Below, piece after piece: positions 3,792 to 19,100 of a stretch of 24,654 nucleotides of DNA. The stretch lies in assembly GCA_964384935.1 (NCBI GenBank), contig CAYLLQ010000003.1, forward strand, positions 1 through 24,654, written 5' to 3'. Origin of the DNA: Candidatus Woesearchaeota archaeon (GTDB lineage Archaea; Nanobdellota; Nanobdellia; Pacearchaeales; GW2011-AR1). The notes beneath the pieces were generated by a model. The model saw only the letters and a program-made list of their open reading frames with translations, was not told where the DNA came from and did not search any database. Made by a program: the position numbers and the translations under genes. Every line of letters begins with the position of its first letter. Within the stretch, counting starts at the first letter, position 1.

Positions 3792-3820
3792 GAAACTAGT
3801 TTCTCCAAAGCGCATATAAT
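3792..3820 (+). promoter_or_regulatory. Palindromic operator/promoter element, copy 1
   Basis: Perfect palindrome GAAACTAGTTTC followed by TCC...TATAAT; AACTAGTTTCTCC recurs at 6058-6070. Confidence 0.5.
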
Positions 3821-3841
3821 GTACCTTTTTCTAGTTTGTTT

Positions 3842-5293
3842 ATGAAAAAAACATTTTCGATTAAAGGGATGAGTTGTCAGTCGTGTGCTAATAGAATAAC
3901 TAGTTCATTAAAAGAAAAAGTAGATAAGATAGAAGTTGACTTTGTAAAAGAAAAAGCAAATATAGAATTTAATCCAGAAAAAATATCTGAAACTGAAATT
4001 AAAGAAATAGTTAAGAAACAAGGTTATGAATTTATTGAATCTGTTGGAAAAGAGATTAAAGCTCTAACCGAAAAAAATGGAAAGAATATTATTGGTTGGC
4101 TAGTTGTTGGGGGAAGCATCCTACTTTTTGCATATGTATTATATAGCCTATTTGGTTCTAATTTTTCTTTGCCCGAATTCGATTTTAATTCTTTAGGGGG
4201 AAACGCGTCTTTATTTTTATTGTTCTTTGCTGGGTTACTTACTGGTTTCCACTGTATTGCAATGTGTGGAGGATTTTTAGTTTCTTATACTGCTAAAAAC
4301 GCTATTAACGGGCACAAGTCTTTTTATCAGCATTTAGTTTATGGGGGAGCTAAAACGGTTTCATATACAATAATTGGGGCGCTGTTTGGATTGATAGGAA
4401 GCTTTTTTGTATTTTCTTCAACTCTTAGGGGAGGAATTGGTATTTTTGCGGGAGTTTTTATGGTCTTTTATGCCCTGAGTATGTTTGGTTTTAAATTCTT
4501 TAGAAAGTTTCAGTTTAACCCCAAGTTTTTGACAAGTATTGCCTCAAAGAAATATTCTGGAGCATATTTTGGACCAATGATGACTGGTTTACTTAATGGG
4601 TTATTTATTGCATGCGGTCCTTTGCAGGCGCTATATATCTATGCTGCTGGAACGGGAAGTCTGGTTCAGGGAGGATTAAGTTTAATGGCGTTCGGATTAG
4701 GAACTCTTCCGGTAATGCTCGGATTCGGAGGTTTTGCAAATGTAGTGAGTCACAATGCAACTAGAAAAATTTTGAAAGTATCTGCAATTATCGTTTTAAT
4801 CTTAGGATTAATTATGTTAAACAGGGGTTTGGCTTTAACTGGTTCAGGATATGACTACAAGAGTTTAATGGCTGGAACAAAAAATTTAGATGGTGTAAGT
4901 AATATTGTCTTAGACTCTGAAGGTTATCAGATAATAAAAATGGATGTTGATAAATACGGTTGGAGTCCAGATAATTTTGTTTTACAAAAAGGAGTTCCGG
5001 TCAAGTGGGTCATAAATGTTAAAGAATTGACTGGTTGTAATAATGCGATTCAAGCTCCTAAATTAAATTTAAAATTTGATTTGAAACAGGGAGAACAAAC
5101 AATTGAGTTTACTCCTGAAGAAGAGGGGGTTATACCTTGGAGTTGTTGGATGGGAATGATTCCAGGAACTTTTGTTGTAACTAGCGATGGAAGTGCAACG
5201 CAAGAACAAGTTAAAACCGCAACAGCACAAACAGCTTCTGCAGGAGGGAGTTGTGGGTGTGGTGGCGGAGGAAGTGGAACTTGTGGAGGGTAA
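3842..5293 (+). CDS. HMA + TauE/DsbD_2-type membrane domain + cupredoxin-like fusion
   Basis: GMSCQSC (HMA); GFHCIAMCGG and IACGP (DsbD_2/TauE); LTGCNN and WSCWMGM (cupredoxin-like); Cys/Gly tail. ATG 3842 is preferred over TTG 3836. Confidence 0.82.
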   Translation: MKKTFSIKGMSCQSCANRITSSLKEKVDKIEVDFVKEKANIEFNPEKISETEIKEIVKKQGYEFIESVGKEIKALTEKNGKNIIGWLVVGGSILLFAYVLYSLFGSNFSLPEFDFNSLGGNASLFLLFFAGLLTGFHCIAMCGGFLVSYTAKNAINGHKSFYQHLVYGGAKTVSYTIIGALFGLIGSFFVFSSTLRGGIGIFAGVFMVFYALSMFGFKFFRKFQFNPKFLTSIASKKYSGAYFGPMMTGLLNGLFIACGPLQALYIYAAGTGSLVQGGLSLMAFGLGTLPVMLGFGGFANVVSHNATRKILKVSAIIVLILGLIMLNRGLALTGSGYDYKSLMAGTKNLDGVSNIVLDSEGYQIIKMDVDKYGWSPDNFVLQKGVPVKWVINVKELTGCNNAIQAPKLNLKFDLKQGEQTIEFTPEEEGVIPWSCWMGMIPGTFVVTSDGSATQEQVKTATAQTASAGGSCGCGGGGSGTCGG

Positions 5294-6104: not shown

Positions 6105-6121
6105 TAAAATGAACTGTTTAA
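6105..6121 (+). repeat. 17-bp direct repeat, right copy
   Basis: See 5291-5307; contains the ATG of the 48-aa ORF. Confidence 0.5.
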
Positions 6122-6255
6122 TATGTAAAAAAGAAACCTACTCTGGAATAGGACATGGATGCAGACTGTGTGTAATGTCTTTAGAGAATAAAAGAAAAAC
6201 TTTTTGTTGCGGAGATTGTAAAGATAAATACTTGGAGATTAACGATGAGTTATGA
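6109..6255 (+). CDS. Small Cys-rich protein (48 aa; not in ORF track)
   Basis: MNCLICKKETYSGIGHGCRLCVMSLENKRKTFCCGDCKDKYLEINDEL, with CxxC, CxxC and CCxxC motifs; overlaps the next ORF. Confidence 0.65.
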   Translation: MNCLICKKETYSGIGHGCRLCVMSLENKRKTFCCGDCKDKYLEINDEL

Positions 6256-6415
6256 AAATTTTTGTGGAATGGGCAAATATTTAGTATTCGGAAGTTTTAT
6301 TAGTTGGACTATCCTAATTTTAATTATAGTTATACTTGTATTAATGCTATGGGTTTCTCACCGCTCGGTGTATCCCAAATTGCAGAATACGGGGGTAAAA
6401 CAAATAAGTAGGTAA
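6245..6415 (+). CDS. Small single-pass membrane protein (56 aa; not in ORF track) carrying an in-frame repeat insertion
   Basis: MSYENFCGMGKYLVFGSFISWTILILIIVILVLMLWVSHRSVYPKLQNTGVKQISR; long hydrophobic helix; ends 6 nt before copA. Confidence 0.65.
   Translation: MSYENFCGMGKYLVFGSFISWTILILIIVILVLMLWVSHRSVYPKLQNTGVKQISR
6359..6397 (+). repeat. Coding palindromic element, short copy A
   Basis: CACCGCTCGGTGTA-TCCCAAATTGCAGAATACGGGGGTA; lacks the central 30 nt of copies B and C. Confidence 0.75.
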
Positions 6416-6421
6416 AACAAA

Positions 6422-8701
6422 ATGACTAAAGTAACAATAAAAATAGATGGTATGACTTGTGCTTCGTGTGCAGGACATGTTAATAAAAGCCTTTCTAAAA
6501 TACCCGGAGTTAAAGTTAATAGTGTTAACGTGGTTATGGGAAAAGCTTTTCTAGAAGTAGAAGATGGAAAGAAGATTAGTGATGAGAAATTACGAGCTGC
6601 AGTAAAAGATGCAGGATACGAGCCGAAGGAGATTCAAAAAGAATCTTCGGCTTCTCAATCAAAAACAATGCACAGTTCTGAGCACACAAAGGTACAGAAT
6701 GAGGGGGCAGAAATTTCGGTATGGAAGAAAAAATTATTCGGAGTTTGGTTGTTTACAATTCCGATTGTGATAATTATGTATGGGGGTAAATTATTCGGAG
6801 GAGAAATTATTCCTATGATGTATATGACTCCAGTGTTACTTGTTTTATCGTTCCCAATTATTTTTGTTTTTGGTTTTCACACAGTTAAAATGGGATTGAG
6901 GGGATTTCTCAAATTCTATTTTGGAATGGATTCTTTGATTGCCTTGGGGACAATCATTGCTTATTTTACTGGAATTTTAACTTACTTTATAAATATAGAA
7001 AATTTTTCTGGAGTTTCCGGAATGATTATGACTATTTTTATCACGGGGAAATATATCGAAGCTAAAGCAAAGGGGAAAGCTACAGAAGAAATTAAAAAAC
7101 TTTTAGAGCTAGGAGCAAAGAGTGCGAGAATTCTTCGGGTTCCGCAAGGGGGTGACCCTAACGGGCCTAAAGAAGAAATTGAAGTTCCTATTTCAGAAAT
7201 TCAATTGGGAGACATTATGATTATAAAACCAGGAGAAAAAATTCCTACGGATGGAATTGTTTTCAAGGGAGAGAGTGCAGTGGATGAATCTATGATTACT
7301 GGTGAGAGTTTGCCAGTTGACAAAATTAAGGGTGCGCGGGTTATTGGGGCAACGATAAATCAAGATGGAATTCTTTATGTTAAAGCAACCAAAGTAGGAA
7401 AAGATACATTCTTAGCACATATTATAAAATTAGTTGAAGAGGCGCAAGGAACTAAAGTCCCAATTCAGGCGGTTGCAGATAAAATCACAAATATTTTTGT
7501 CCCAGTTATTTTAACAATTGCCGTTTTAACTTTTTTTGCTTGGATTTATTTTTCTAAAGATTTAGGGAGGTCTGTTGGAGTTGCAATTTCTGTTTTGGTT
7601 ATTGCTTGTCCGTGTGCTTTGGGTTTGGCTGTTCCAATTTCTTTAACAGTGGGTTCGGGTATGGGGGCCAAAAGAGGAATTTTAATTAGAAAAGGTGAGG
7701 CTATTCAAACAATGAAAGAGATTAAAACAATAGTCTTTGATAAAACTGGGACAATCACCGAAGGGAAACCAGTAGTTAGAGAGGTTTATTCAAAAAATGA
7801 AAAATATTTATTTGAAGTTGCTGGAAGTTTGGAAAAATTATCCGAGCATCCACTTTCAAAAGCAATTGTAAATTATTGGCACCGCTCGGTGTACGCCAAG
7901 GGGGCGCGAGAACCTCTCCGAGGCCCCAAATTGCGAAATGATGGGGCAAAATACCCCCTGAAGGTTAGTAAGTTCAAAATTTTAAGAGGAAGAGGAGTTG
8001 AAGGAATTATTGGGAGAAAAAATATTGTTATTGGAAATTCTACTTTAATGAAAGAAAAGAAAATTTCTTTGAAAGGTCTTGAGGAAAAAATCGAATCTTT
8101 TGAAGAAAAAGGTTATACTACGATGGCTGTTGCTGAAAATGGAAAAGTTTTAGGAATTATTGGTGTTGCTGATTCTGTTAAGAAAGATTCTATTGCTGCA
8201 ATTAGAGAATTAAAAAAACAAGGATACAAAACAATTATGATTACGGGGGACAATGAAAGAACAGCTAGAGCAATAGCAAAGGAAGTTGGAATCTCAGAGG
8301 TTATTGCGGGAGTTATGCCAGAAGACAAATCAAAGAAAGTTGAGGAGTTGCAAAAGACAGGAATGGTTGCATTTATTGGAGATGGGGTAAATGATGCACC
8401 AGCTTTGAAACAGTCAAATGTCGGAATTGCAATGGGAACTGGAACAGACATCGCGATTGAAGCGGGGGATATTGTTTTGGCTAAAGGAAGTTTAATGGGG
8501 GTTGTTCAAGGAATTAATTTAAGTAAAGCAACATTTTCAAAGATAAAGCAAAATTTATTCTGGGCATTTTTCTACAATTCAATTGCAATACCCTTAGCGA
8601 TTGGAGGGGTTCTAAATCCAGTTGTTGCAGAGTTAGCAATGGCTCTTTCAAGTATTAGCGTTATAACAAATGCAAATTTAATGAGGATGAAGAAGATATA
8701 A
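6422..8701 (+). CDS. copA: Cu(I)-translocating P1B-type ATPase
   Basis: GMTCASC, TGES, ACPCALG, DKTGT, SEHP, GDGVND, YN and MALSS motifs. Confidence 0.93.
7136..7167 (+). repeat. GC-rich in-frame insertion in copA ([11 protein letters not shown])
   Basis: 23 of 32 bases are G/C; two mini-hairpins TCC-GCAA-GGG and CCC-TAAC-GGG, in the ARILR..EIEVP loop. Confidence 0.5.
7880..7947 (+). repeat. Coding palindromic element, copy B (in copA N-domain)
   Basis: 68 nt, 44 G/C; 48 of the first 51 nt are identical to copy C; encodes [22 protein letters not shown]. Confidence 0.9.
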
Positions 8702-8740
8702 ATTCACCACATTTAAAACCTCTTTTCTCGTATATTCCCC

Positions 8741-8968
8741 ATGGCGTATTATATGAAGAATTGTGGAAGATGTAAGAAAGAGACAAAACATTTAGTTTAC
8801 AAAAAGGTCGGAGATAAGGTTAAGTTAAAGTGCGTGAATTGCCGAAGAGTTTGTCTTAAAGAAAAAAATCTCCATGAAATAAAACATTCTAAGTTCAAGG
8901 AAAAAAAGAATCTCGGTCCAATTAAAAGTCTACTTTTGCATTACGAAGAATTATTTAAGAAAAAGTAA
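8741..8968 (+). CDS. Small Zn-ribbon-like hypothetical protein
   Basis: CGRC and CVNC pairs; preceded by TATA-like TTTAAAA at about 8712. Confidence 0.6.
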   Translation: MAYYMKNCGRCKKETKHLVYKKVGDKVKLKCVNCRRVCLKEKNLHEIKHSKFKEKKNLGPIKSLLLHYEELFKKK

Positions 8969-9319
8969 TTATCTTGGAATAAACCCTTCAAGTTCATATG
9001 CAACCAATTTTCTTTGAGATTCTGAAGGCTCATCTGAATAAAGTTTAACAGTCCCATTAAATAACCTTTTTCCAAACAGGAAAGAGCCATCATCTCCAGT
9101 GTTTAAAGGATCTTTTCCCGGAATAGCCATAGCCATGTAAAGATCTCCAGAATCACCTTCTATCCAGTACCATCTTTCCCTAGATGGCGAGGGAGATCCT
9201 TTACTAACAATTCAGGGGGTAATCACTTCTTCCCCGATAACTCTCCCATCTACAAAATGATTGTTGGAACAACCAGCAAGTGTGAGGAGAGTTGCAATTG
9301 TTGCTAAAGCCCTTTTCAT
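8969..9319 (-). pseudogene. Lipoprotein-like ORF (116 codons) interrupted by one in-frame TGA
   Basis: MKRALATIATLLTLAGC signal/lipobox; TGA at 9214-9212 (codon 36); the frame stays open for 80 more codons to a TAA abutting the neighbour's stop. Confidence 0.6.
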
Positions 9320-9375
9320 TCTGAAAGAAGAGAATATATTGTAATTAATAAATTTATTGGCAATCGAATGTATAC

Positions 9376-10104
9376 TTAAATTTTATAAACTGCTCTAACA
9401 CTTGCAGAGATATCTTGTTCTGAAGGAGTTATACTTGTTGCCACTTGCTTTTCTTCGGATGTTAAGACTGCTCCAGCAGAATTATCATAAGCTCTTAATG
9501 GATAGTAATCATAACTGTCTACAGAAGTTGAAACTAATCTTCCGAGTCTTTTACCGAATCCTTGCGCAACAGCCTCTGCTTTTACTTTTGAATCTTGAGC
9601 TGCTAATTTTAATGCTTCTGATTTATATTGATTTTGTAACTCTTGGCTTAACTCAAAATTTATGTAACTTATTCCAACTCCAGATTTTACTCCAGCATCT
9701 ATAACCTCTCCTATTTTAGAGGATTCAGAAGTAGGAAGTTCAACTCTCAAAGAATGGGATGCGGTATAACCTTTTTCTACTTGTCTTCCATTTACCCAAT
9801 CGTATTGAGGATAAACGCTAAATCCTTGTGTTTGAATAGCCTTTTCCTCAAAGCCTAATTTTATTATTTCTGATTTCAAAGAATCAACTAGTTCTGAATT
9901 CTTCTGAGTTGCTTCTGCACTTGTTTTTGCGTTTGTCTGTACGTTGAAGTAAACTCCAACTAAATCTGGAACGGCTTTAACTTGCGCTTGTCCGTTTACA
10001 GTAATAGTATTTTGTGAAGAGTTTCCAAAAAAAGAAAATCCTAAGAAAGAAATAACAATTAATCCTACAACAATAATAGAAGTTATTTGAACTGATTTTT
10101 GCAT
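9376..10104 (-). CDS. SIMPL (DUF541) domain protein
   Basis: N-terminal TM helix, TITVNGQAQVKAVPD, ISYINFELS, ALKLAAQDSKVKAEAVA. Confidence 0.85.
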   Translation of the reverse strand: MQKSVQITSIIVVGLIVISFLGFSFFGNSSQNTITVNGQAQVKAVPDLVGVYFNVQTNAKTSAEATQKNSELVDSLKSEIIKLGFEEKAIQTQGFSVYPQYDWVNGRQVEKGYTASHSLRVELPTSESSKIGEVIDAGVKSGVGISYINFELSQELQNQYKSEALKLAAQDSKVKAEAVAQGFGKRLGRLVSTSVDSYDYYPLRAYDNSAGAVLTSEEKQVATSITPSEQDISASVRAVYKI

Positions 10105-10158
10105 ATCTTAATTAAGAAAATGGTATTTATAAGTTTTACATAATAGAGATTTAAGAGA

Positions 10159-10902
10159 TTATTTCCCGCAGATTTCGTATGCATCGTCTTGGGGAGAATA
10201 ACCAACTAATTCTTTCGCTAACTTTAAGTCCATATTATGTTTTTTATTATTTGAGATTCCAGATAAAATTGCATACTTCAATTCTTTTTTAGCTATAATT
10301 GATTTATGCATTAGTTGAGATAAATCTCGTTGACTTACAACATAATGATAATCGGTCCTTTCAGAACAAACAGAACACATTTCGTCTTTTGCAGCGTAAG
10401 CTCCAATTCGTATTGCAATACAAGATAAATCCGAGTTAGAGGAAAATGTATAACAAAGCGCTTCTCCAAATGCTTTTGTTGCTCCGTAAATTGTTAATGG
10501 CTTAGGGGCATCTTCTCCTCGAACTTTGTAATCTAAATCGTATCCCTTAATTGCATGAACACTACTTGCGAATATAACTCGGGAACATTTTTTTTCTAGT
10601 GCAACATTAAAAACATTGTAAGCTCCAATAATATTCGGTTCGATTAAGTCGGTAAAAGATGCTGAGGGACTCGGATTTGCTGCGAGATTAATAATTACAT
10701 CGATTCCTTCAAATGCTTTTCTAAGGGAATCTAAATCAGTAAGAGAAAATTTTCTTGTTTCTAATTTCTCTGCAAAAGAAGAAGTTTTATGGACTCCAAT
10801 GATTAATTGATACTCTTTTTTCCAATCATAATTTTCTAAATAATCCTCAATAAATCCTGTTCCAACGTTTCCAGAAGCTCCCAACAATAAAACTTTTTTC
10901 AT
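10159..10902 (-). CDS. NAD-dependent epimerase/dehydratase (extended SDR; uronate-dehydrogenase-like)
   Basis: GASGNVG, INLAA, FASS and YGATK motifs. Confidence 0.85.
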   Translation of the reverse strand: MKKVLLLGASGNVGTGFIEDYLENYDWKKEYQLIIGVHKTSSFAEKLETRKFSLTDLDSLRKAFEGIDVIINLAANPSPSASFTDLIEPNIIGAYNVFNVALEKKCSRVIFASSVHAIKGYDLDYKVRGEDAPKPLTIYGATKAFGEALCYTFSSNSDLSCIAIRIGAYAAKDEMCSVCSERTDYHYVVSQRDLSQLMHKSIIAKKELKYAILSGISNNKKHNMDLKLAKELVGYSPQDDAYEICGK

Positions 10903-10949
10903 ATTCTTTTATAGAGCTCCAAGTTATAAAGTTTGCTAAGAAAACAAGG

Positions 10950-11024
10950 AGTACTTCTATTTTTCATCTGCTAGAGTAAATACTCAAAAACATTTAAATA
11001 GTACTTACAAATAGTAGAAGTACT
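10950..11024. promoter_or_regulatory. Divergent promoter with repeated AGTACT palindromes and a TATA box
   Basis: AGTACT at 10950, 11000 and 11019; inverted repeat AGTACTTCTA/TAGAAGTACT; GAGTA-AA-TACTC; TTTAAATA at 10993-11000. Confidence 0.45.
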
Positions 11025-11028
11025 TAAA

Positions 11029-11352
11029 ATGACAACAATAAATGTAAACAGCGTAAACTTTGAAAAGGAAGTAGTTGAGTCGAAGATTCCAGTGATCATT
11101 GACTTTTGGGCATCGTGGTGTGGACCGTGTCAAATGATGGGACCGGTATTTGAAAAGTTGAGTAAACAATTTGTTGGCAGAGTAAAATTTGTCAAAGTGA
11201 ATGTTGAAGAAGAGCAAATGCTACCCAGTCAGTTTGATGTATCCGGAATTCCTTGTTTGGTCTTGACTGAAAGAGGAAAAGAAATAGATAGAATCGTTGG
11301 CTACGTACCTGAAGAAGCGCTAAAAGAAAAAATAGAAGAAAACTTAAGATGA
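11029..11352 (+). CDS. trxA: Thioredoxin
   Basis: [11 protein letters not shown] motif. Confidence 0.95.
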
Positions 11353-11696
11353 TTGATTTCGCTTGCAAGAGATTTAATCTAGAAGACATAATTAAATGTG
11401 GACTTGGATTAACTCGTACAGAATTTGAAATTATGAAATATTTTCTGAATAATTCTAGCAAGGAGTTTATCACTTCAGATATTTCAAAAAAACTAAAGCT
11501 GAGTTTAACAACAATTCAGAAAGCGGTAAAAAAACTATATGAAAAAAGAGTTATAATTAGACATCAGAAAAATCTCAAAAACGGGGGATATGTTTATACC
11601 TATGAGTGTAATTCAAAGCTAGAGATTAGAAAATCTATAAAGGCAATTATAAAAAATTGGTCGAATCAGGTAGAAGATAAAATTGATAAATGGTAA
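11349..11696 (+). CDS. Archaeal TrmB-like wHTH transcriptional regulator (COG3355-like)
   Basis: MIDFACK...IIKCGLGL N-terminus; [24 protein letters not shown]; GGYVYTY wing. Confidence 0.78.
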
Positions 11697-11759
11697 TAAT
11701 AATTTTTTATCGGAAAAAGGATAAACAAAGTTTTTAAACGAATAAAATTCCTATTCTGA

Positions 11760-12326
11760 ATGAGCTACTTTGAAGAATCGCAAAAACTTAGAAGAGAAAT
11801 AGAAAACGACCGGGATATTTGTGTAAAAATTAAAGCTTTTGAAAAAAGGGGGCTAGAACTAGAGTTTATGGCAAGTGGTGGAAGAAATAGTCATTATAGA
11901 TTGGGGCAATTGCCCTCGGGGTTATGGATTGCATTAAGAGAGAGTGTCGGTTATGAAAGAGGGGAATTTGAAGAATTGGGATTGATTGGATGTGCATTGT
12001 ATGAAACTTATTGTCAGGAAGCAGAAAGATTCCATGAGAGGGGAAAAAGAGTTCCTCTTTCAGTTGGAGGTTACATCAAAGAAATTGAAACCCCCTTCCT
12101 CGTTGTTGAAGATTTGGGAGAGGGTAAAAACGGGGTAGTTTTTGGAACTGGGTGCAGTAATTCTAGAGGATATATTGAGAGAGATGGAAAGAGAGAAGAG
12201 GTATGGTTTGACCTGGGAAAAGATGATACTTTGGGTATGGAATCAATTACGAATAAAAGAATTGATGGACTTTTTGATATTCGCTCCTTAAAATATTTTC
12301 ACCCAACTGCAAGAATAAATCTTTAA
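11760..12326 (+). CDS. Hypothetical protein, possibly a degenerate kinase-like fold
   Basis: Intact ORF. ASGGRNSHY, IALRE, FLVVEDL and WFDLG weakly echo kinase motifs. Confidence 0.55.
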   Translation: MSYFEESQKLRREIENDRDICVKIKAFEKRGLELEFMASGGRNSHYRLGQLPSGLWIALRESVGYERGEFEELGLIGCALYETYCQEAERFHERGKRVPLSVGGYIKEIETPFLVVEDLGEGKNGVVFGTGCSNSRGYIERDGKREEVWFDLGKDDTLGMESITNKRIDGLFDIRSLKYFHPTARINL

Positions 12327-12455
12327 ATTTAAATCATTACTATCCGTTAAATTTTTAGTTTAAGCTCAATTTATCTAAACGGCTTGGATAAAAATAAATT
12401 TACAAAAGATTGGACAAATGGTAAACATTTAAATAAATGCTGAATATCTAAAAAT

Positions 12456-13415
12456 ATGGAAAAGAGTTATGATTTAATTATTATTGGTGCAGGTGGAACT
12501 GGCTTGGCTGCTGCAATGTATGCTGCTCGTTTAAGTTTGCAAACTTTAGTTCTTGGGACATCGCATGGTTCTGAACTTCCTATTGGGGGAGTTATCACCA
12601 CTACAAATGTTGTTGAGAATTATCCTGGATTTAACAAAATAGGGGGAATGGAAATTGCTAGAAAGATAAAAGAACATGCAGAAGAATATAAAGAAGTTAC
12701 GATTAAAACAGAGAAAGCAGAATCGGTTGAAAAATTAAAAAGTTGTTTTAATGTTAAAACAAAAAAGGAAGAATATAAGGCAAAGGCAGTAATTTTTGCA
12801 ACAGGAACAAAATGGAGAAAACTTCCCGAGTCAGTTAAGGGTTCTAAAGAGCTAGAGAGAAGGGGTGTTAATTACTGTGCTCTTTGTGATGGACCATTGT
12901 ACAGAGGAAAAACTGTCGCAGTTATTGGTGGTTCGGACACTGCCGCTAAAGACGCTTTAATTCTTGCAGAGTATGCGGACAAAGTTTACATGATTTACAG
13001 AGGGGATTCAATTCACCCCGAACCAGCAAATTTAGATAAAATTCAAAAGAATAAAAAAATAGAAGTGATTAATAATACAAATTTAACAGAGATAAAAGGC
13101 GAAACAAAAGTTGAAGGAGTTGTATTGGATAAAGCGTATAAAGGAAAAAAAGATCTAGAATTAAACGCGGTTTTTGTTGCAATTGGACACGAAGTGCTTT
13201 CTGAATTAGCAAAATCAATTGGAGTTAAAACAAATTCCCATGAGGAAATAATCATCGATCATAAAGATTGTTCTACGAATGTTAAAGGGGTTTTTGCCGC
13301 TGGAGATGTAACAGACAAACCGTTCAAACAATTGATTACGGGTGTTGCTGATGGATGTACTGCGGCGTATTCAGCGTATGAGTATATAACCAATAGCGAA
13401 GTTGATGTTTGTTAG
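12456..13415 (+). CDS. trxB: Thioredoxin reductase
   Basis: IIGAGGTG, ENYPGF, CALCDG, VIGGSDTA, GVFAAGDV. Confidence 0.9.
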   Translation: MEKSYDLIIIGAGGTGLAAAMYAARLSLQTLVLGTSHGSELPIGGVITTTNVVENYPGFNKIGGMEIARKIKEHAEEYKEVTIKTEKAESVEKLKSCFNVKTKKEEYKAKAVIFATGTKWRKLPESVKGSKELERRGVNYCALCDGPLYRGKTVAVIGGSDTAAKDALILAEYADKVYMIYRGDSIHPEPANLDKIQKNKKIEVINNTNLTEIKGETKVEGVVLDKAYKGKKDLELNAVFVAIGHEVLSELAKSIGVKTNSHEEIIIDHKDCSTNVKGVFAAGDVTDKPFKQLITGVADGCTAAYSAYEYITNSEVDVC

Positions 13416-13463
13416 ATAGTTCAAGACAATAAACTATAAATAGAAGTTCTACATTAATAATCA

Positions 13464-14096
13464 ATGCCACACAGACTTTTACAAAAGGAGCATGAGGCAA
13501 TTCTGTCGAAATTAAAGGATTTTGAAATAATTATAGATGCTCTTCCAGAAAATCCAAAAGTTATTGAGCTTAAGAAAATTTTTTCTTTTATTGATTTAGC
13601 TGAAACGCATCATAGAAAGGAAGAGGAAATTCTTTTCAAAAGTTTAGAAGAAAAGGGACACGAAATACCGACCCAACTATTTAGAATGGACCATGATGAC
13701 ATTCGTAAAGCAAAAGAAGTTTTAAAGGAAGTAATCGAAGAAGAAAATATAGAACTGATTAAAGCTCTGCTTTTATTTGAGGGAAAGTTTTTGATTCAAA
13801 AAATGCGGGAGCACATAAGACGTGAAGACGAGATTATTTACCCCTTAGCAAAACAAATTATTGAAGAAGATGAGTGGGGAAGGATAAAGAAAAAATTTGA
13901 TGAGATTGGATATATTTGTGAGATTCCTGATGAGTTCAAAGTTTATGAGATTATTTTAAACGATGTAAAAATTGCAGAACTAATCGCAAAGTTAAATGGA
14001 TTAAAGCTGTTTAAAGATAAAGTAAACATTCAGGATTTAAAGAAAAACAATTTTAGTCTGGTGCATGAAGAAGCGGTTAAAGATGTGTTTTCTTAA
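13464..14096 (+). CDS. Hemerythrin/HHE cation-binding domain protein
   Basis: KEHEAI, HHRKEEEILF, MDHDDIR, EHIRREDEIIYP. Confidence 0.8.
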   Translation: MPHRLLQKEHEAILSKLKDFEIIIDALPENPKVIELKKIFSFIDLAETHHRKEEEILFKSLEEKGHEIPTQLFRMDHDDIRKAKEVLKEVIEEENIELIKALLLFEGKFLIQKMREHIRREDEIIYPLAKQIIEEDEWGRIKKKFDEIGYICEIPDEFKVYEIILNDVKIAELIAKLNGLKLFKDKVNIQDLKKNNFSLVHEEAVKDVFS

Positions 14097-14158
14097 GTGT
14101 ATTGTTAACTTACTGAGGCTTTAAGAATATTTAAAACTCAATGATTCTTTAGTTCTCT

Positions 14159-15052
14159 ATGGATAAACTTGAACAAAAATTTAAACAAACTCTAGATAAA
14201 ATGAATCTAAGTAAAAATCGCCGCTCGGCGTACGCCAAGGAGGCGCGAGAACCTCTCCGAGGCCCCAAAGTAAGGAGTAAGGGGGCAAAGATAATTGTTG
14301 CTTTATCTGGAGGGAAGGATTCTACAGTTGTTGCTTACTTATTGCACAAATTTGGCTACAATATTGAAGGGGTTCATATTGATTTAAAAATTGGTAAATA
14401 CAGCGATGATTGTTTAAAGAAAGTTCAAGAACTTTGTAGCGATTTAGAGATAAAACTTCATTTATTCGATATGAAAAAAGAGATGGGGAGCGGAATGTGT
14501 TATCTTAGAACCGCGATTCAATCTGAACACATAAAACAAAAAAAAGGTCAGATTAAAAATTGTGCAATTTGTGGAGTTATAAAAAAATGGATTCTGAATA
14601 AAGTCGTCAGAAAATTAGATGCGGATTACATTGCAACAGGACATAATCTTGACGACGAAGCTCAGACATTTTTAATGAATGTCTTGAAAGGAAGCATAGA
14701 ACTTAGTGCAAATTCTGGAGTTAGAACTAAAAATATCGGAGATAAGAAATTTATTCCAAGAATAAAACCCTTGTTTTATATCGCTGAAGAGGACATTAAA
14801 ACTTATTCTAAGAAAATGAAACTTCCAGTACATTATGAAAAGTGCCCGTGTGCAATTGATTCATATAGAATTCAAATAAGAAATTTTTTAGAAAAGGTTC
14901 CTACAAAGAAAAAAGAAAATATAATCAGAAATTCGGAGAACATTTTAAAGAAAGTTGAGAAAAAGAGTTCTGGATTGAGATATTGTGAAATGTGTGGTGA
15001 ACCCTCCAGAGGAAATATATGTAAAAAGTGTCAGTTAATGAGTGTTTGTTAA
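14159..15052 (+). CDS. tRNA thiolation protein, TtcA/TtuA/Ctu1 family
   Basis: PP-loop SGGKDS, CAIC, GHNLDD, CPCA, and a C-terminal CEMC..CKKC Zn finger. Confidence 0.88.
   Translation: MDKLEQKFKQTLDKMNLSKNRRSAYAKEAREPLRGPKVRSKGAKIIVALSGGKDSTVVAYLLHKFGYNIEGVHIDLKIGKYSDDCLKKVQELCSDLEIKLHLFDMKKEMGSGMCYLRTAIQSEHIKQKKGQIKNCAICGVIKKWILNKVVRKLDADYIATGHNLDDEAQTFLMNVLKGSIELSANSGVRTKNIGDKKFIPRIKPLFYIAEEDIKTYSKKMKLPVHYEKCPCAIDSYRIQIRNFLEKVPTKKKENIIRNSENILKKVEKKSSGLRYCEMCGEPSRGNICKKCQLMSVC
14219..14286 (+). repeat. Coding palindromic element, copy C (in tRNA thiolase N-terminus)
   Basis: 68 nt; encodes [22 protein letters not shown] just before IIVALSGGKDS. Confidence 0.9.
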
Positions 15053-15699: not shown

Positions 15700-16137
15700 A
15701 TGAACTGCCCATATTGTTCGAATACAACCTCCAGAGTCACGAATAAAAGGGGCTCTCCAGAAGGGGTGAGAAGGAGAAGAGAGTGCTTGAAGTGCAAAAA
15801 ACGATATACAACATATGAGAAAATAGACAAAGGAGAAATATGGGTAATAAAAAAAGATGGTACAAGGCAAATCTTTCAAATAGACAAAATAAAAGTTGGT
15901 GTTGAGAGAGCGTTTGAAAAAAGACCTGTTTCAAAAGAGGAAATTAAAAAGACTCTTGATGAAATAGAAGAACAGATAAGAAAAAAAGGAAAGAGAGAAA
16001 TCAGAAGTTCAATAATTGGAGAATTAGTCATGAAAAAAATAAAAAAATTAGACAACATTGCATACATAAGATTCGCTTCAGTTTACAAAGAATTCAAAGA
16101 TGTTCAGGATTTTAAAAAGGAGATAAAAGATTTATAA
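15700..16137 (+). CDS. nrdR: Transcriptional repressor NrdR
   Basis: MNCPYC...RRRRECLKC..YTTYE Zn ribbon, ATP-cone and AYIRFASVY. True start is ATG 15700 rather than TTG 15634. Confidence 0.93.
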   Translation: MNCPYCSNTTSRVTNKRGSPEGVRRRRECLKCKKRYTTYEKIDKGEIWVIKKDGTRQIFQIDKIKVGVERAFEKRPVSKEEIKKTLDEIEEQIRKKGKREIRSSIIGELVMKKIKKLDNIAYIRFASVYKEFKDVQDFKKEIKDL

Positions 16138-19100
16138 TGGTATCAAAAATTAGAAAACGTGACGGAAGTGTAGTTCAATTTCAAGAGTTCAAAATTACCG
16201 AGGCTATCTGGAAAGCTGTTAAAGCGGTTGGAGGAACAGATAAAGAAAAGGCGGAACGCCTTGGAGAAGAAGTTATAAGACAGTTAAATGAAAAATTTGG
16301 TGAACTAGGAATTCCTTCGGTAGAAGAAGTTCAAGATTTAGTGGAAAAGATCTTAATTGAAGCGGGTCATGCTAAAGTCGCAAAAGCGTACATTCTTTAC
16401 AGAAAAAGTCACGACGAACTAAGAAGTATTAAGGGACTTTTTGATACTATAGAGGCTGTTGATGATTACATCGGATTAAACGATTGGATGGTTAAAGAAA
16501 ATTCGAATATGGGTTTTTCTTTACAAGGATTAAATAATTATATTGCTACAAAAATAATCACAAATTATTGGATGAGAAGAATTTACCCTGAAGCGGTAAG
16601 AACTGTTCACGAGAGTGGAGATTTGCACGTACATGATTTAGGCACTCTGGGAGCATATTGTTATGATGATAAAACAAAAATACTTACAGAAGCTGGTTGG
16701 AAATTTTTTAAAGATGTAAAAGAAGGTGAAAAAGTTGCAACAAAAAATATTGCTACGAGAGAAATAGAATTCCAAGTTCCTCATGCAAAACAAGTTTACA
16801 ATTATTCTGGAAAAATGTACTCTTATGAGGGAAGAAGCGTTTCTTTACTTGTGACTCCAGAACATAGACTCTTGGTTAGAAGAAAGGGAAAAACTAAATG
16901 GGAATTTTTAACCCCTCCAGATTTTAAATACGGGATGGAATTTGATAAGACTGGCTCGTGGAAAGGTAAAACCGCTAATTTTTTTCATGTTCCAGAAATG
17001 AGAGGGGGAAATCAAAAAAAGACAATTGGAAAAATAGAAATTAAAGACTATCTAGAGTTTATGGGTTGGTTTTTATCAGAAGGGTCGGTGTACGAACCAT
17101 CCAAAGGAGATTTTAGAATAAGTATTGCTCAATCGAGAAAAAAGTATCGGGAAGAAATTTGTTCTTTACTTAAAAAAATGAATCTCCATTTCAATGATTC
17201 TTCTGAATTCAACATTCATCTACACTCTAAAGAGTTGTACTATTATTTAAAGCAATTTGGAAAATCTGGAGAAAAATATCTACCCACAAACATAAAAGAA
17301 TTAAATTCAGATTTAATTAAAGTTTTTTTAACTACTTTATTTAAAGGGGATGGAAGTTATTCGGAAAAAAACAAGTTATTGAAATATTATACCAAATCTG
17401 AAAAGTTAGCTGAAGACGTATGTGAGTGCCTATTAAAAATAGGTCTTTGTGGAACAATTACTAAAAGGAAAGGGATGAATATCTATATGGTCTCTGTTGA
17501 AAATAATCATTTAACTCCGATATACCGAAAAAAAGAAAAAGTGGTTGAGTATTCTGGAAAAGTTTATGATTTTTCTGTCAAAAATACAACCTTGATTGTT
17601 ATGCGGAACGGGAAGATTGTGGTTTCGGGTAATTGCGTCGGGTGGGACTTGAAAGATTTATTGATTCTAGGATTTAAAGGAGTTCAAGGAAAAGTTGCAT
17701 CTAAACCTCCAAAACATTTTAGAACTGCCCTTGGACAAATGGTTAATTTTTTCTATACCCTTCAGGGAGAAACTGCAGGAGCGCAAGCATTTTCTAACGT
17801 AGATAGTTTATTGGCTCCGTTTATTCGATATGATAATTTAAGTTACAAGGAAGTAAAACAATCCATACAAGAATTTTTATTTAACTTAGCTGTTCCAACA
17901 AGGGTCGGTTTTCAGTGTATGTCTGAAGATACGGAAATCCTTACGCCAAATGGTTGGGCAAGCTATAATGATCTGAAAAAAGGGGATACAATCAAAACAT
18001 TTAATATTGAAAAAAGAGTGATTGAAGATAAACCAATTAGAAAATTATTTGCAAGGGAATACTCGGGAATTATGTATAATTTGAAAAATAGAATTCAGGA
18101 CCAATTAATTTCTCCCGGACATAGGGTGGTTAGAAAGAGATTTCAAACCGAAAATTATTATCTTGAACCAATAGAGGAAATTGATAAAATGAAATCTCCA
18201 TTTATCGTTCCTATTGCAGGGGAAAATGTTGTAAAAGATTCTAAAATATCCGATGAACAGATAAAATTAATGTCGTGGATAATTGGTGAGGGGAGCATTG
18301 AACGTCCAGGAAAAAGTCGATGTTGTTATAGAGTAAGCATTTATCAGTCTGAAATAAAAAACAATGAAAAGTATAAAGAAATAAAAAAATTGTTAGATCA
18401 TTTTAAATTAAAATATTCGGAGTACACTCAAAAAGGTATGGGATGTGATGTAAAACGAATAAGATTGGATGCAGAATCATCTAAAAAAATCCATTCGTGG
18501 TTTGGAACAAAAGAATCAATAAAATTTATTCCTCAAATTCTTTTAAATATGAGTCAAATGCAGTCACGATTATTTTTAGAAACATACATTAAAGCAGAAG
18601 GATTTGAAAATTGTAAAATTGCAACAACCGATCAGGAAATTTTAGACGGATTACAACAAATTGCAGTAAACTCTTGCTACGGATTTACGGTCTTAACAAG
18701 AAAACCAACAATAGGTAAAAAATTAATTTATGTTTTGAGATTAATAAATCATCAAGATAGCTATATTCAAAAAATAGAGAAAATAAATTATTCTGGAATA
18801 ATTTGGTGCCCAAACACAGATAATGAAACAGTAATTGCTAGGAGAAATGGAAAGGTTTTCATTACAGGAAATACTCCATTTACAAATGTTACAATGGATT
18901 TGAAAGTTCCAGAATACATGAAAAATGAACCGGTTATTATTGGTGGAAAACCTCAAAAAGAAACATACAAAGAATTCCAAAAAGAAATGGACATGTTCAA
19001 TAAAGCTTTTGCAGAGGGAATGTTAGAAGGAGATGCCGACGGAAGAGTCTTCACTTTTCCCATTCCAACTTATAACATCACAAAAGATTTTGATTGGGAA

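Follow-up and report, generated by a model that had tools for sequence, protein, structure and literature searches.

A small modular hairpin repeat within protein genes of DPANN archaea

How does the same GC-rich hairpin repeat come to lie, in frame, within three different protein genes of a very small archaeal genome, and is it still present when those genes are translated? The question arose from a preliminary description of a 24,654-nt stretch of DNA (the window) from the 0.7-Mb (712-kb) genome of an ultra-small lake archaeon of the Pacearchaeota-type DPANN (G000). DPANN archaea have among the smallest and most gene-dense of cellular genomes and therefore leave little room for mobile DNA. 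We searched for the repeat family in G000 using blastn, nhmmer and a covariance model, and in 60 relatives using the covariance model. The copies in the window, their inner modules and their host genes are as follows:

6245 to 6415, + strand: small membrane ORF of 56 aa preceding copA, host of copy A
6359 to 6397, + strand: copy A, short form, 39 nt
6422 to 8701, + strand: copA, P1B-type copper ATPase (Pfam E1-E2_ATPase, Hydrolase and HMA), carrying copy B and the decayed copy
6669 to 6712, + strand: probable decayed fourth copy, in copA (covariance-model match of 23.3 bits, E 0.002-0.005)
7880 to 7948, + strand: copy B, long form, 69 nt, CACC to GGGGCA
7894 to 7923, + strand: inner module of copy B, 30 nt, flanked by the 5' and 3' hairpins
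14159 to 15052, + strand: TtcA/NcsA-type tRNA thiolation PP-loop ATPase (Pfam ATP_bind_3 and tRNA_Me_trans), host of copy C
14219 to 14287, + strand: copy C, long form, 69 nt
14233 to 14262, + strand: inner module of copy C, 30 nt

Copies A, B and C were recovered at the positions originally given for them. Their GC contents are 0.54, 0.65 and 0.68, respectively, compared with 0.33 for the window, in agreement with the 65% GC in AT-rich surroundings reported for copy B. Aligned to copy A, copies B and C show a single gap of exactly 30 nt, between GTGTA and CCCC, confirming that copy A is the longer form minus exactly 30 nt. The length of 68 nt assigned to the longer form needs correction: the conserved unit, from CACC to GGGGCA, measures 39 nt in the short form and 69 nt in the long form. 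The three differences described between the cores of copies B and C are those of the first 52 nt: one loop base plus the compensatory A-U/G-C pair in CRCC...GGYG. The full 68 nt contain 10 differences, of which the other 7 sit in the 3' hairpin's loop. The match between B and C has a blastn E value of 1e-17 against the whole 712-kb genome, so their resemblance is not due to chance.

Copy A reads as HRSVYPKLQNTGV in the C-terminal tail of the 56-aa ORF, which has no Pfam match, and ends 24 nt before the copA ATG. Copy B reads as 23 residues in the nucleotide-binding domain of CopA, directly after the SEHPL motif. In the TtcA/NcsA-like thiolase, copy C reads as 22 residues, followed by (A), positioned after the N-terminal helix and before the PP-loop strand (SGGKDS). 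The probable fourth copy reads as 14 residues in the variable linker from the HMA domain to the first membrane helix of CopA, where linker length differs between orthologues. The 5' strand of its 3' hairpin is gone, and its 5' hairpin (GCACAGTTCTGAGC) resembles a variant (GCGCAGTTCTGCG) in the relatives G007 and G001.

Consistent with the dispersed family that had been proposed, the three search methods yielded at least 9 clear copies in G000. The covariance model additionally matched 18 sites in G001, 32 in G007, 3 in G027 and 1 (weak) in G018, and gave zero matches in 55 of the 60 relatives, including G002, a member of the same genus. The family is patchy among close relatives. An exact 21-mer from the repeat recurs in 35 stretches of contig, every one of them from a DPANN MAG; it was absent from viral contigs and had no match outside DPANN MAGs. 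The window had no match in Rfam 15 at E ≤ 1, and we found no published description of the repeat in the literature. It is apparently a dispersed small element inside protein genes that has not been described before, in keeping with the preliminary description.

In the basic unit of 39 nt, a UA linker joins the 5' hairpin (CACC-GCUC-GGUG) to the 3' hairpin (CCCC-15 nt-GGGG-CA), which reads UCCC...GGGG(UA) in copy A. Longer forms carry at least one extra small hairpin module after the GUA linker. Modules measure 30 nt in the window and ~18 nt in a relative, the longest units in relatives reach ~85 nt, and one copy is nested within another. The inner module of copy B is a hairpin (CGCC-AAGGG-GGCG) followed by CGAGAACCUCUCCGAGG and differs from that of copy C by a single base, in the loop. 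A homologous module at a G007 locus (L077) has different, compensated stem letters (UCCC-AAAGA-GGGA followed by CGAGUACCUCUUCGAGG). Across copies, 9 of 10 stem pairs have changed on both sides, and the covariation score of 0.33 exceeds the 0.17 of shuffled alignments (0 of 500 shuffles reach 0.33) and collapses when the alignments are slid. Single-sequence folding energies are no different from those of shuffles (z -0.1 to -1.0), so the evidence for structure is the covariation across copies. This pattern of substitution shows hairpins evidently preserved through compensatory changes, as expected from the selection on structure suggested earlier. Counts of G-U versus A-C pairs do not tell which strand folds.

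The term palindromic, applied to the element at the outset, does not describe it well: the element consists of short hairpins in tandem, some of the modules being optional, and its ends (CACC... and ...GGGGCA) are not terminal inverted repeats. The target duplications sought around the copies were likewise not seen; the CAAAR on the 3' side stays the same irrespective of the 5' flank and hence is not a target duplication. Net insert sizes are 36 or 39 nt and 63-69 nt. The ends are not fixed to the base, because a conserved G (-1) and AAR (+1 to +3) could belong to the element or to the target.

Empty sites were found for all three copies. At the syntenic spot in G011, upstream of copA, lies a small ORF of weak similarity (tblastn E 0.61) in which LWLT is followed directly by KQIT, whereas LWVS and KQIS are separated by 13 aa in G000, an insert of +13 codons. 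Approximately 21 residues of copy B are absent in 12 CopA orthologues (38-70% identity), and exactly 22 codons of copy C are absent in 11 orthologues, including those of the same-genus genomes G001 (82% identity) and G002. Empty sites also exist for copies in enolase (-12 codons) and in an MBL-fold protein (-13); DNA glycosylase is a further host. The enolase copy sits in the catalytic loop (GGxHS...KPDFQEF), with 12 extra residues. In an AlphaFold model of the copy C host, mean pLDDT over the insert is 61 for residues 21-30 and 45 for residues 31-40, in keeping with a loop, and the rest is confidently folded (pTM 0.82). Because orthologues in sister genomes lack each insert, copies A, B and C are, on sequence comparison, insertions and not ancestral peptides. 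Movement is inferred only from comparison between species, as contigs of the source run and of an independent sample showed no site that is filled in some members of the population and empty in others.

Could the copies be artefacts, or segments that never become part of a protein? The assembly over the copies is sound: contigs from the independent sample (X3 records 17 and 19, the latter for copy B) span copies A and B with zero differences, and contigs from the source run itself span all three. Since every orthologue examined also lacks the inserts, there is next to no chance that misassembly, or peptides common to all homologues of CopA and TtcA, account for the repeat. The preliminary description had also raised a micro-intron. 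Excised from the transcript at a bulge-helix-bulge (BHB) by the archaeal splicing endonuclease, or by another RNA route, it would leave a protein without the loop. Near-constant sense orientation is what would be expected of anything removed from a transcript, and 12 residues within the enolase catalytic loop look risky. G000 also encodes the tRNA-splicing endonuclease EndA, but this is uninformative because, to our knowledge, EndA occurs in all archaea. The reading frames argue against excision. Among 54 deep intragenic copies, the host frame contains no stops (two flagged cases are gene boundaries), whereas 46 of 112 non-host sense frames (41%) contain one, a depletion with a naive P of about 1e-13 that treats copies as independent; a spliced element needs no such openness. 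Element lengths are all multiples of three, copies at gene ends supply the host's last residues and stop codon, flanks are unrelated, and the conserved unit is a set of separate short hairpins and not a BHB. Unlike in an archaeal BHB intron, a BHB spanning the element is no commoner in the copies (12 of 62) than in shuffles (12 of 62). Splicing thus appears very improbable. Because the host frame is conserved open while many other sense frames are not, we infer that intragenic copies are transcribed and read through, presumably adding 12-23 residues in loops, linkers and tails.

As noted previously, copies A, B and C are all sense and share a common frame (HRSVY.../RRSAY...). The shared frame does not extend to the family, nor does the proposed selection on frame: copies within long ORFs use every one of the three sense frames (26:21:9, with the Cys-rich F2 under-used). 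Each phase is usable, since element lengths divide by three and most variants have open sense frames. Orientation totals about 73 sense to 2 antisense (43:2 in the first sample and about 30:0 in 20 other MAGs), and the two true antisense in-frame copies lie in an MTS methyltransferase and a TctA membrane transporter. Because the element follows its host gene and not the local majority strand, even amid opposing neighbours (L082: 0 same, 5 opposite), an effect of replication direction is disfavoured. Sense and antisense occurrences of the flanking motif (CAAAR, RAAR) differ just 1.4-2.3-fold, too little to explain the bias. Sense peptides are hydrophilic, Pro/Gly-rich and loop-like (GRAVY -0.25 to -1.5), whereas antisense peptides are more hydrophobic and aromatic (up to +0.84). 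The under-use of F2 and the location of one antisense copy in a membrane transporter also fit a filter on the peptide. Our best guess is that the sense bias would come mainly from selection on the encoded peptide, although such selection may be too weak for a bias of about 35:1. The bias might instead arise at insertion, with the element copied into the coding (non-template) strand when transcription leaves it single-stranded, or through an mRNA intermediate, and its translation a tolerated by-product. The orientation ratio is far stronger than the under-use of F2, the element tracks its host gene, the flanking asymmetry is small, and most of the copies between genes or at gene ends likewise point the same way as the nearest gene, which hints at a mechanistic bias. 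However, several intergenic copies are antisense to the nearest gene, and the two in-frame ones are antisense to their hosts; the repeat shows no link to a reverse transcriptase or transposase; and poly-A tails, target duplications and other marks of known mechanisms are absent at the copies. We regard this origin as unlikely. A stronger proposal, that sense orientation reflects a new kind of mobility in which transcription-coupled single-strand insertion or an RNA intermediate writes the element into the coding strand, is decidedly doubtful. Under that proposal, the multiple-of-three length and mostly stop-free sense frames would have evolved for life in ORFs of genomes nearly devoid of intergenic DNA, and some junction copies may have been co-opted as translation-start or mRNA-processing signals. 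Alternatively, the hairpins could serve the host by slowing ribosomes, by stabilising or processing polycistronic transcripts, or by giving a G-rich ribosome-binding context before the start codon. Many copies lie at same-strand gene junctions and end 1-29 nt before the next start codon (24 nt for copy A, 7 nt for the C18 copy), and the hairpins are conserved through covariation. Yet the element is missing from most relatives, orthologues work without it, and copies decay (6669-6712 and the G007 enolase copy); junctions and C-terminal tails are also the most permissive places where intergenic DNA is nearly absent. A host function is accordingly improbable.

We consider it likely that the copies belong to a very small, non-autonomous, modular repeat family of Pacearchaeota/Woesearchaeota-type DPANN and are read through as peptide loops. 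The hairpins would be what the mobilising machinery recognises. Survivors would be insertions into permissive loops only, which would account for the repeated hits on the same enolase loop. The cognate HUH/Y1 transposase envisaged in the preliminary description was not found: no Y1 genes were found in G000 or G001 (79-84% complete), and they are present in 12 relatives without the repeat. Flanks of the Y1_Tnp and TnpB-like genes of some relatives lack the element's hairpins, and the distribution of these genes does not track the element.

The repeat illustrates one route by which selfish DNA can persist in such genomes: tiny, a multiple of three in length and mostly free of stops in its sense frames, it can sit as harmless loops in essential genes, including those for a copper pump, a tRNA thiolase, enolase and a DNA glycosylase. 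Inserts of this kind inflate or distort DPANN marker alignments, domain boundaries and phylogenies, and a simple covariance model is enough to mask them. They also provide a natural record of where conserved enzymes have permissive loops, and their patchy distribution makes them markers of recent lineage history.

Among known systems, the Rickettsia palindromic elements (RPEs; Ogata et al. 2000) are, in the accounts given in PMC2229807 and PMC10969869, bacterial repeats of 105-150 bp with terminal inverted repeats and one long stem-loop. Like RPEs as portrayed there, the hairpin repeat is dispersed and non-autonomous, occupies a small AT-rich genome, lies in frame in unrelated housekeeping genes, is read as extra peptide at permissive sites and has no transposase of its own. 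Unlike them, it measures 39-69 nt (to ~85 in relatives), is built of two to four separate 4-5-bp hairpins in tandem, some modules being optional, and lacks terminal inverted repeats. It also occurs in all three sense frames but almost never antisense, and belongs to archaea (DPANN), whereas RPEs are a sequence family restricted to Rickettsia. According to a citation in PMC2229807, Methanocaldococcus jannaschii has palindromic repetitive elements with coding potential (Suyama et al. 2005), which are likewise archaeal and fused into protein genes. They are set apart by a host that is a hyperthermophilic methanogen and not a DPANN archaeon.

MITEs have terminal inverted repeats and a target-site duplication, and the hairpin repeat has neither. 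Its near-exclusive sense orientation and modular, nested build are not accounted for by knowledge of RPEs or MITEs and point to another mobilisation mechanism. REPs are extragenic, with a conserved GTAG or CGTC head and a RAYT (Y1) gene flanked by REPs. Like REP/BIME-RAYT systems and IS200/IS605-derived PATEs, the hairpin repeat is short, based on hairpins and strand-specific in its biology, and lacks both terminal inverted repeats and target duplication; Y1 transposases do occur in the archaeal family. Unlike REPs, it has no GTAG/CGTC head, is mostly intragenic and has no co-occurring Y1 or RAYT gene. The GC clusters of yeast mitochondria (GC42) are mostly intergenic, with duplicated AG target flanks (PMC4478555), whereas the hairpin repeat is mostly intragenic, without target duplication and in an archaeal host. 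Like GC42 and fungal mitochondrial double-hairpin elements, for which, as here, no enzyme is known, it is a ~40-nt GC-rich hairpin unit of an AT-rich genome in which stems are conserved, loops vary, and hairpin modules merge and shuffle.

All three copies of the GC-rich hairpin repeat that a preliminary description had reported were located in the window, each in the sense orientation of its host gene:

6359-6397, sense: copy A, short form of 39 nt, in a 56-aa membrane ORF (6245-6415) upstream of copA
7880-7948, sense: copy B, long form, in copA
14219-14287, sense: copy C, long form, in the gene for a TtcA-like tRNA thiolase

Their GC contents are 0.54, 0.65, and 0.68 for copies A, B, and C, respectively, compared with 0.33 for the window. 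Copy A had been said to lack 30 nt, and copies B and C indeed consist of the copy-A unit plus an exact 30-nt block, CGCCAAGGRGGCGCGAGAACCTCTCCGAGG, placed between GTGTA and CCCC. Copies B and C match each other with E = 1e-17 (blastn, whole 712-kb genome). As the preliminary description had noted, they differ at three positions within the first 52 nt: two of these make up a compensatory A-U/G-C exchange in the first hairpin, and the third is a loop base. The loop of the last hairpin holds seven more differences. Contigs from a different lake-water sample run across copies A and B without any difference, those of the source run cover all three copies, and no contigs skipping an element or representing empty alleles were seen in the DNA runs. 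The copies are therefore not an assembly artefact, which rules out the misassembly that had been considered.

The genome holding the window (84 contigs, 712 kb, 32% GC, 79% complete) originates from lake water. It is archaeal; its genes include those for the splicing endonuclease EndA and for ribosomal protein S8e. On one of its contigs, ARAGORN predicted a 90-nt tRNA of unassigned identity with a four-base anticodon (ccta) adjoining a tRNA-Gly; this tRNA may be intron-containing or otherwise unusual.

Alignment with orthologues indicates that the window copies are insertions. The encoded peptides are not ancestral to all CopA and TtcA homologues, the reading that had been set against insertion. 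Exactly 22 codons of the TtcA-like gene are absent in 11 orthologues, including those of the same-genus relatives G001 (82% identical) and G002, and the alignment is gap-free on either side. Likewise, approximately 21 residues following the SEHPL...AIV helix of CopA are absent in 12 orthologues. For copy A, relative G011 carries a weakly similar small membrane ORF (tblastn E = 0.61) at the same position upstream of copA, reading LWLT|KQIT where the window reads LWVS-HRSVYPKLQNTGV-KQIS; the insert is therefore exactly 39 nt at 6359-6397. Compared with relatives G002, G003, and G004, two copies elsewhere in the genome add 12 codons (enolase) and 13 codons (MBL-fold protein).

Further features were noted around copA. 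A Cys-rich 48-aa ORF (6109-6255) lies upstream, and its homologue adjoins copA in relative G042 (tblastn E = 8e-12); neither this ORF nor the 56-aa ORF has a Pfam match. At approximately 7139-7165, copA contains a second, different GC-rich in-frame insert of 27 nt, which adds VPQGGDPNG in the actuator-domain region (ARILR[...]PKEEIEV) and is absent in all 12 CopA orthologues. It resembles two small hairpin modules (CGC-AAGG-GGG... and ACCC-UAAC-GGGC) lacking the hairpins found at either end of the main element, and blastn found no other copies in the genome.

From CACC to GGGGCA, the short form measures 39 nt in nearly all copies, and longer forms carry extra small hairpins 3' of the GUA linker:

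Short form, part 1: 5' hairpin of 4-5 bp, CACC-GCUC-GGUG
Short form, part 2: UA linker
Short form, part 3: 3' hairpin, CCCC, 15-nt loop, GGGG, then CA
Extra module in copies B and C: the 30-nt block
Extra modules in G007 (other genus, same family): TCCCAAGGAGGGACAAGA and TACCCTAAAGGGCACAAG
Extra module in G007, homologue of the 30-nt block: first stem UCCC/GGGA instead of CGCC/GGCG

Across 73 hits, both partners have changed in nine of the ten pairs in the model (A-U/G-C, C-G/U-A). The covariation score was 0.33 compared with 0.17 in shuffles, none of 500 shuffles reached 0.33, and the signal was lost when the pairing partners were slid. Single-copy folding energies were no different from those of shuffles and were dropped as evidence of structure. 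A strand test yielded 20 G-U against 9 A-C pairs (two ambiguous pairs excluded); the pair closing the 3' hairpin, however, is A-C in 48 copies and would be G-U on the opposite strand, and the comparison is uninformative about the folding strand.

The element lacks both terminal inverted repeats and a target duplication. It is usually preceded by G and followed by AAR, regardless of the other flank. Duplication of an AG or AAR target was rejected, as the 3' CAAAR stays the same with any 5' flank. Net gains are 36 or 39 nt (63-69 nt for long forms), so the ends of the element are not defined at single-nucleotide resolution.

A covariance model derived from seven short copies, with nhmmer run alongside, detected six further short copies on other contigs of the genome and a weak, decayed copy at 6669-6712 in copA. 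Among 60 relatives, the covariance model matched 18 times in G001, 32 times in G007, 3 times in G027, and once, weakly, in G018; the other 55, including G002, had no match. One 21-mer from the element was matched exactly in 35 contig stretches from a species-representative genome collection, all of them MAGs labelled Pacearchaeota, Woesearchaeota, Nanoarchaeota, or "archaeon." No exact 21-mer match was found in viral contigs, and no Rfam family matches the window. G001 also holds a divergent subfamily (CACTGCTCAGTGTACCCCTYTTTGCGGAGTGCTTGGGCA; loci L058, L062, L065, and L066) whose loop is rich in T. Several of its copies are intergenic; some stand in tandem on either side of an A-rich spacer, and some run antisense to the closest gene.

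Hosts in the genome comprise CopA, the TtcA-like thiolase, enolase, a radical-SAM protein, an MBL-fold protein, a family-4-type uracil-DNA glycosylase (no orthologue in five relatives searched), and small ORFs. The radical-SAM host (contig C11, about 3800-3900; locus L001) contains a run of N, giving 34 X in translation, which is either an assembly gap or a withheld stretch. In enolase, one loop (GGxHS...KPDFQEF, catalytic-loop region) is occupied in three genomes:

Window genome, C1:751-789 (L002): element in frame 1
G001, L093: nested double copy in frame 1, one element inside the other's loop
G007, L094: decayed long form in frame 3

The same loop lacks the element in G002, G003, and G004. 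Since it is filled in different frames and forms and is empty in three relatives, at least two independent insertions occurred at this one permissive loop. Many copies, including copy A, sit where two genes on the same strand meet; they supply the C-terminal tail of the first gene's product and stop 1-29 nt short of the following start codon. The window also contains another kind of in-frame selfish element: the anaerobic ribonucleotide reductase gene nrdD (16137-21155; 1672 aa) is interrupted by intein and LAGLIDADG domains (Pfam Intein_splicing, LAGLIDADG_3, and Hint_2).

The preliminary description had also proposed a micro-intron that is spliced out. With the host frame set from the flanks alone, no stop codon was found in that frame in 54 deep intragenic copies, whereas one or more stops were present in 46 of the 112 sense frames not used by the host. 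Two flagged stop cases proved to be gene boundaries, where the element ends one gene just before the next. Without selection, a stop-free host frame has a chance of the order of 1e-13 (copies treated as independent). Where a loop variant would put TGA into one of the frames, it is absent from hosts using that frame. A bulge-helix-bulge (BHB) motif spanning the element was as frequent in the copies (12 of 62) as in shuffles (12 of 62), and a BHB intron was rejected on this lack of enrichment. From these sequence patterns, we infer that the element is read through, not spliced. AlphaFold modelling of the TtcA-like protein (pTM 0.82) placed the insert (residues 21-43) between a confident N-terminal helix and the PP-loop strand; over most of the insert, mean pLDDT is 61 (residues 21-30) and 45 (residues 31-40).

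The claim of a common frame holds for copies A, B, and C but not for the family, which uses all three sense frames:

HRSVYPKLRNEGAK: approximately 26 copies
APLGVPQIAExGGK: approximately 21 copies
TARCTPNCGxxGQ: approximately 9 copies

Orientation was counted by taking the longest ORF as host, followed by inspection by eye, since a flank-only rule (at least 25 open codons on each side) gave spurious antisense calls from short open stretches. The first sample comprised 43 sense copies, 2 antisense copies (in genes for an MTS methyltransferase and a TctA membrane transporter), and 17 copies at gene ends or intergenic. A second, independent sample from approximately 20 other MAGs gave approximately 30 sense copies and no clear antisense copy.

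Several causes of this bias were rejected. Stop codons do not account for it, because the antisense frames are also open. Replication direction fails because co-orientation of neighbouring genes is only 71% and the element keeps the direction of its host even where every neighbour points the other way, and asymmetry of the flanking motif gives a sense/antisense ratio of only 1.4-2.3, which is insufficient. The peptides read from sense frames are hydrophilic, with much Pro and Gly (GRAVY -0.25 to -1.5), whereas antisense peptides are more hydrophobic and aromatic (GRAVY up to +0.84). Selection at the peptide level is the most likely cause. The bias may instead stem from a mechanism tied to transcription, as copies at gene ends and in intergenic regions are likewise mostly sense.

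A cognate HUH/Y1 transposase had been suggested as a target of search. Y1 genes (IS200/IS605/RAYT) occur in 16 of 61 genomes of the group, 12 of which lack the element, and neither Y1 nor TnpB genes were found in the window genome or G001, assemblies that are 79-84% complete. Across the 61 genomes, Y1 or TnpB-like genes showed no association with the element, and its hairpins are absent from the flanks of Y1 genes in G007, G027, and G002. No cognate transposase was found among the Y1 and TnpB-like genes. Directly 3' of a Y1 gene (tnpA) in G007 (L115:1906-1945) is a hairpin, GCCCTTTAGGGC, whose complement shares 13 nt with the inner module ACCCTAAAGGGCAC. This match is too short to count as evidence, although it might hint at where the modules came from.

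We found no published description of the element in the literature searched, and a 2024 review of prokaryotic MITEs has nothing comparable from DPANN archaea. Its main interest lies in the orientation rule and the mobilisation mechanism. The functional situation is the same as that of Rickettsia palindromic elements (RPEs), selfish repeats translated inside housekeeping genes (PMC2229807, PMC10969869). However, the element is neither an RPE nor a MITE, because it has no terminal inverted repeats, single long stem-loop, or target duplication, is a third of the size, and is archaeal. Its build is closer to that of mobile GC clusters in the mitochondria of yeast: hairpin units of 42 nt in which the stems are conserved, the loops vary, and modules merge (PMC4478555). 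Those clusters, however, are mostly intergenic and duplicate an AG target (PMC4478555).
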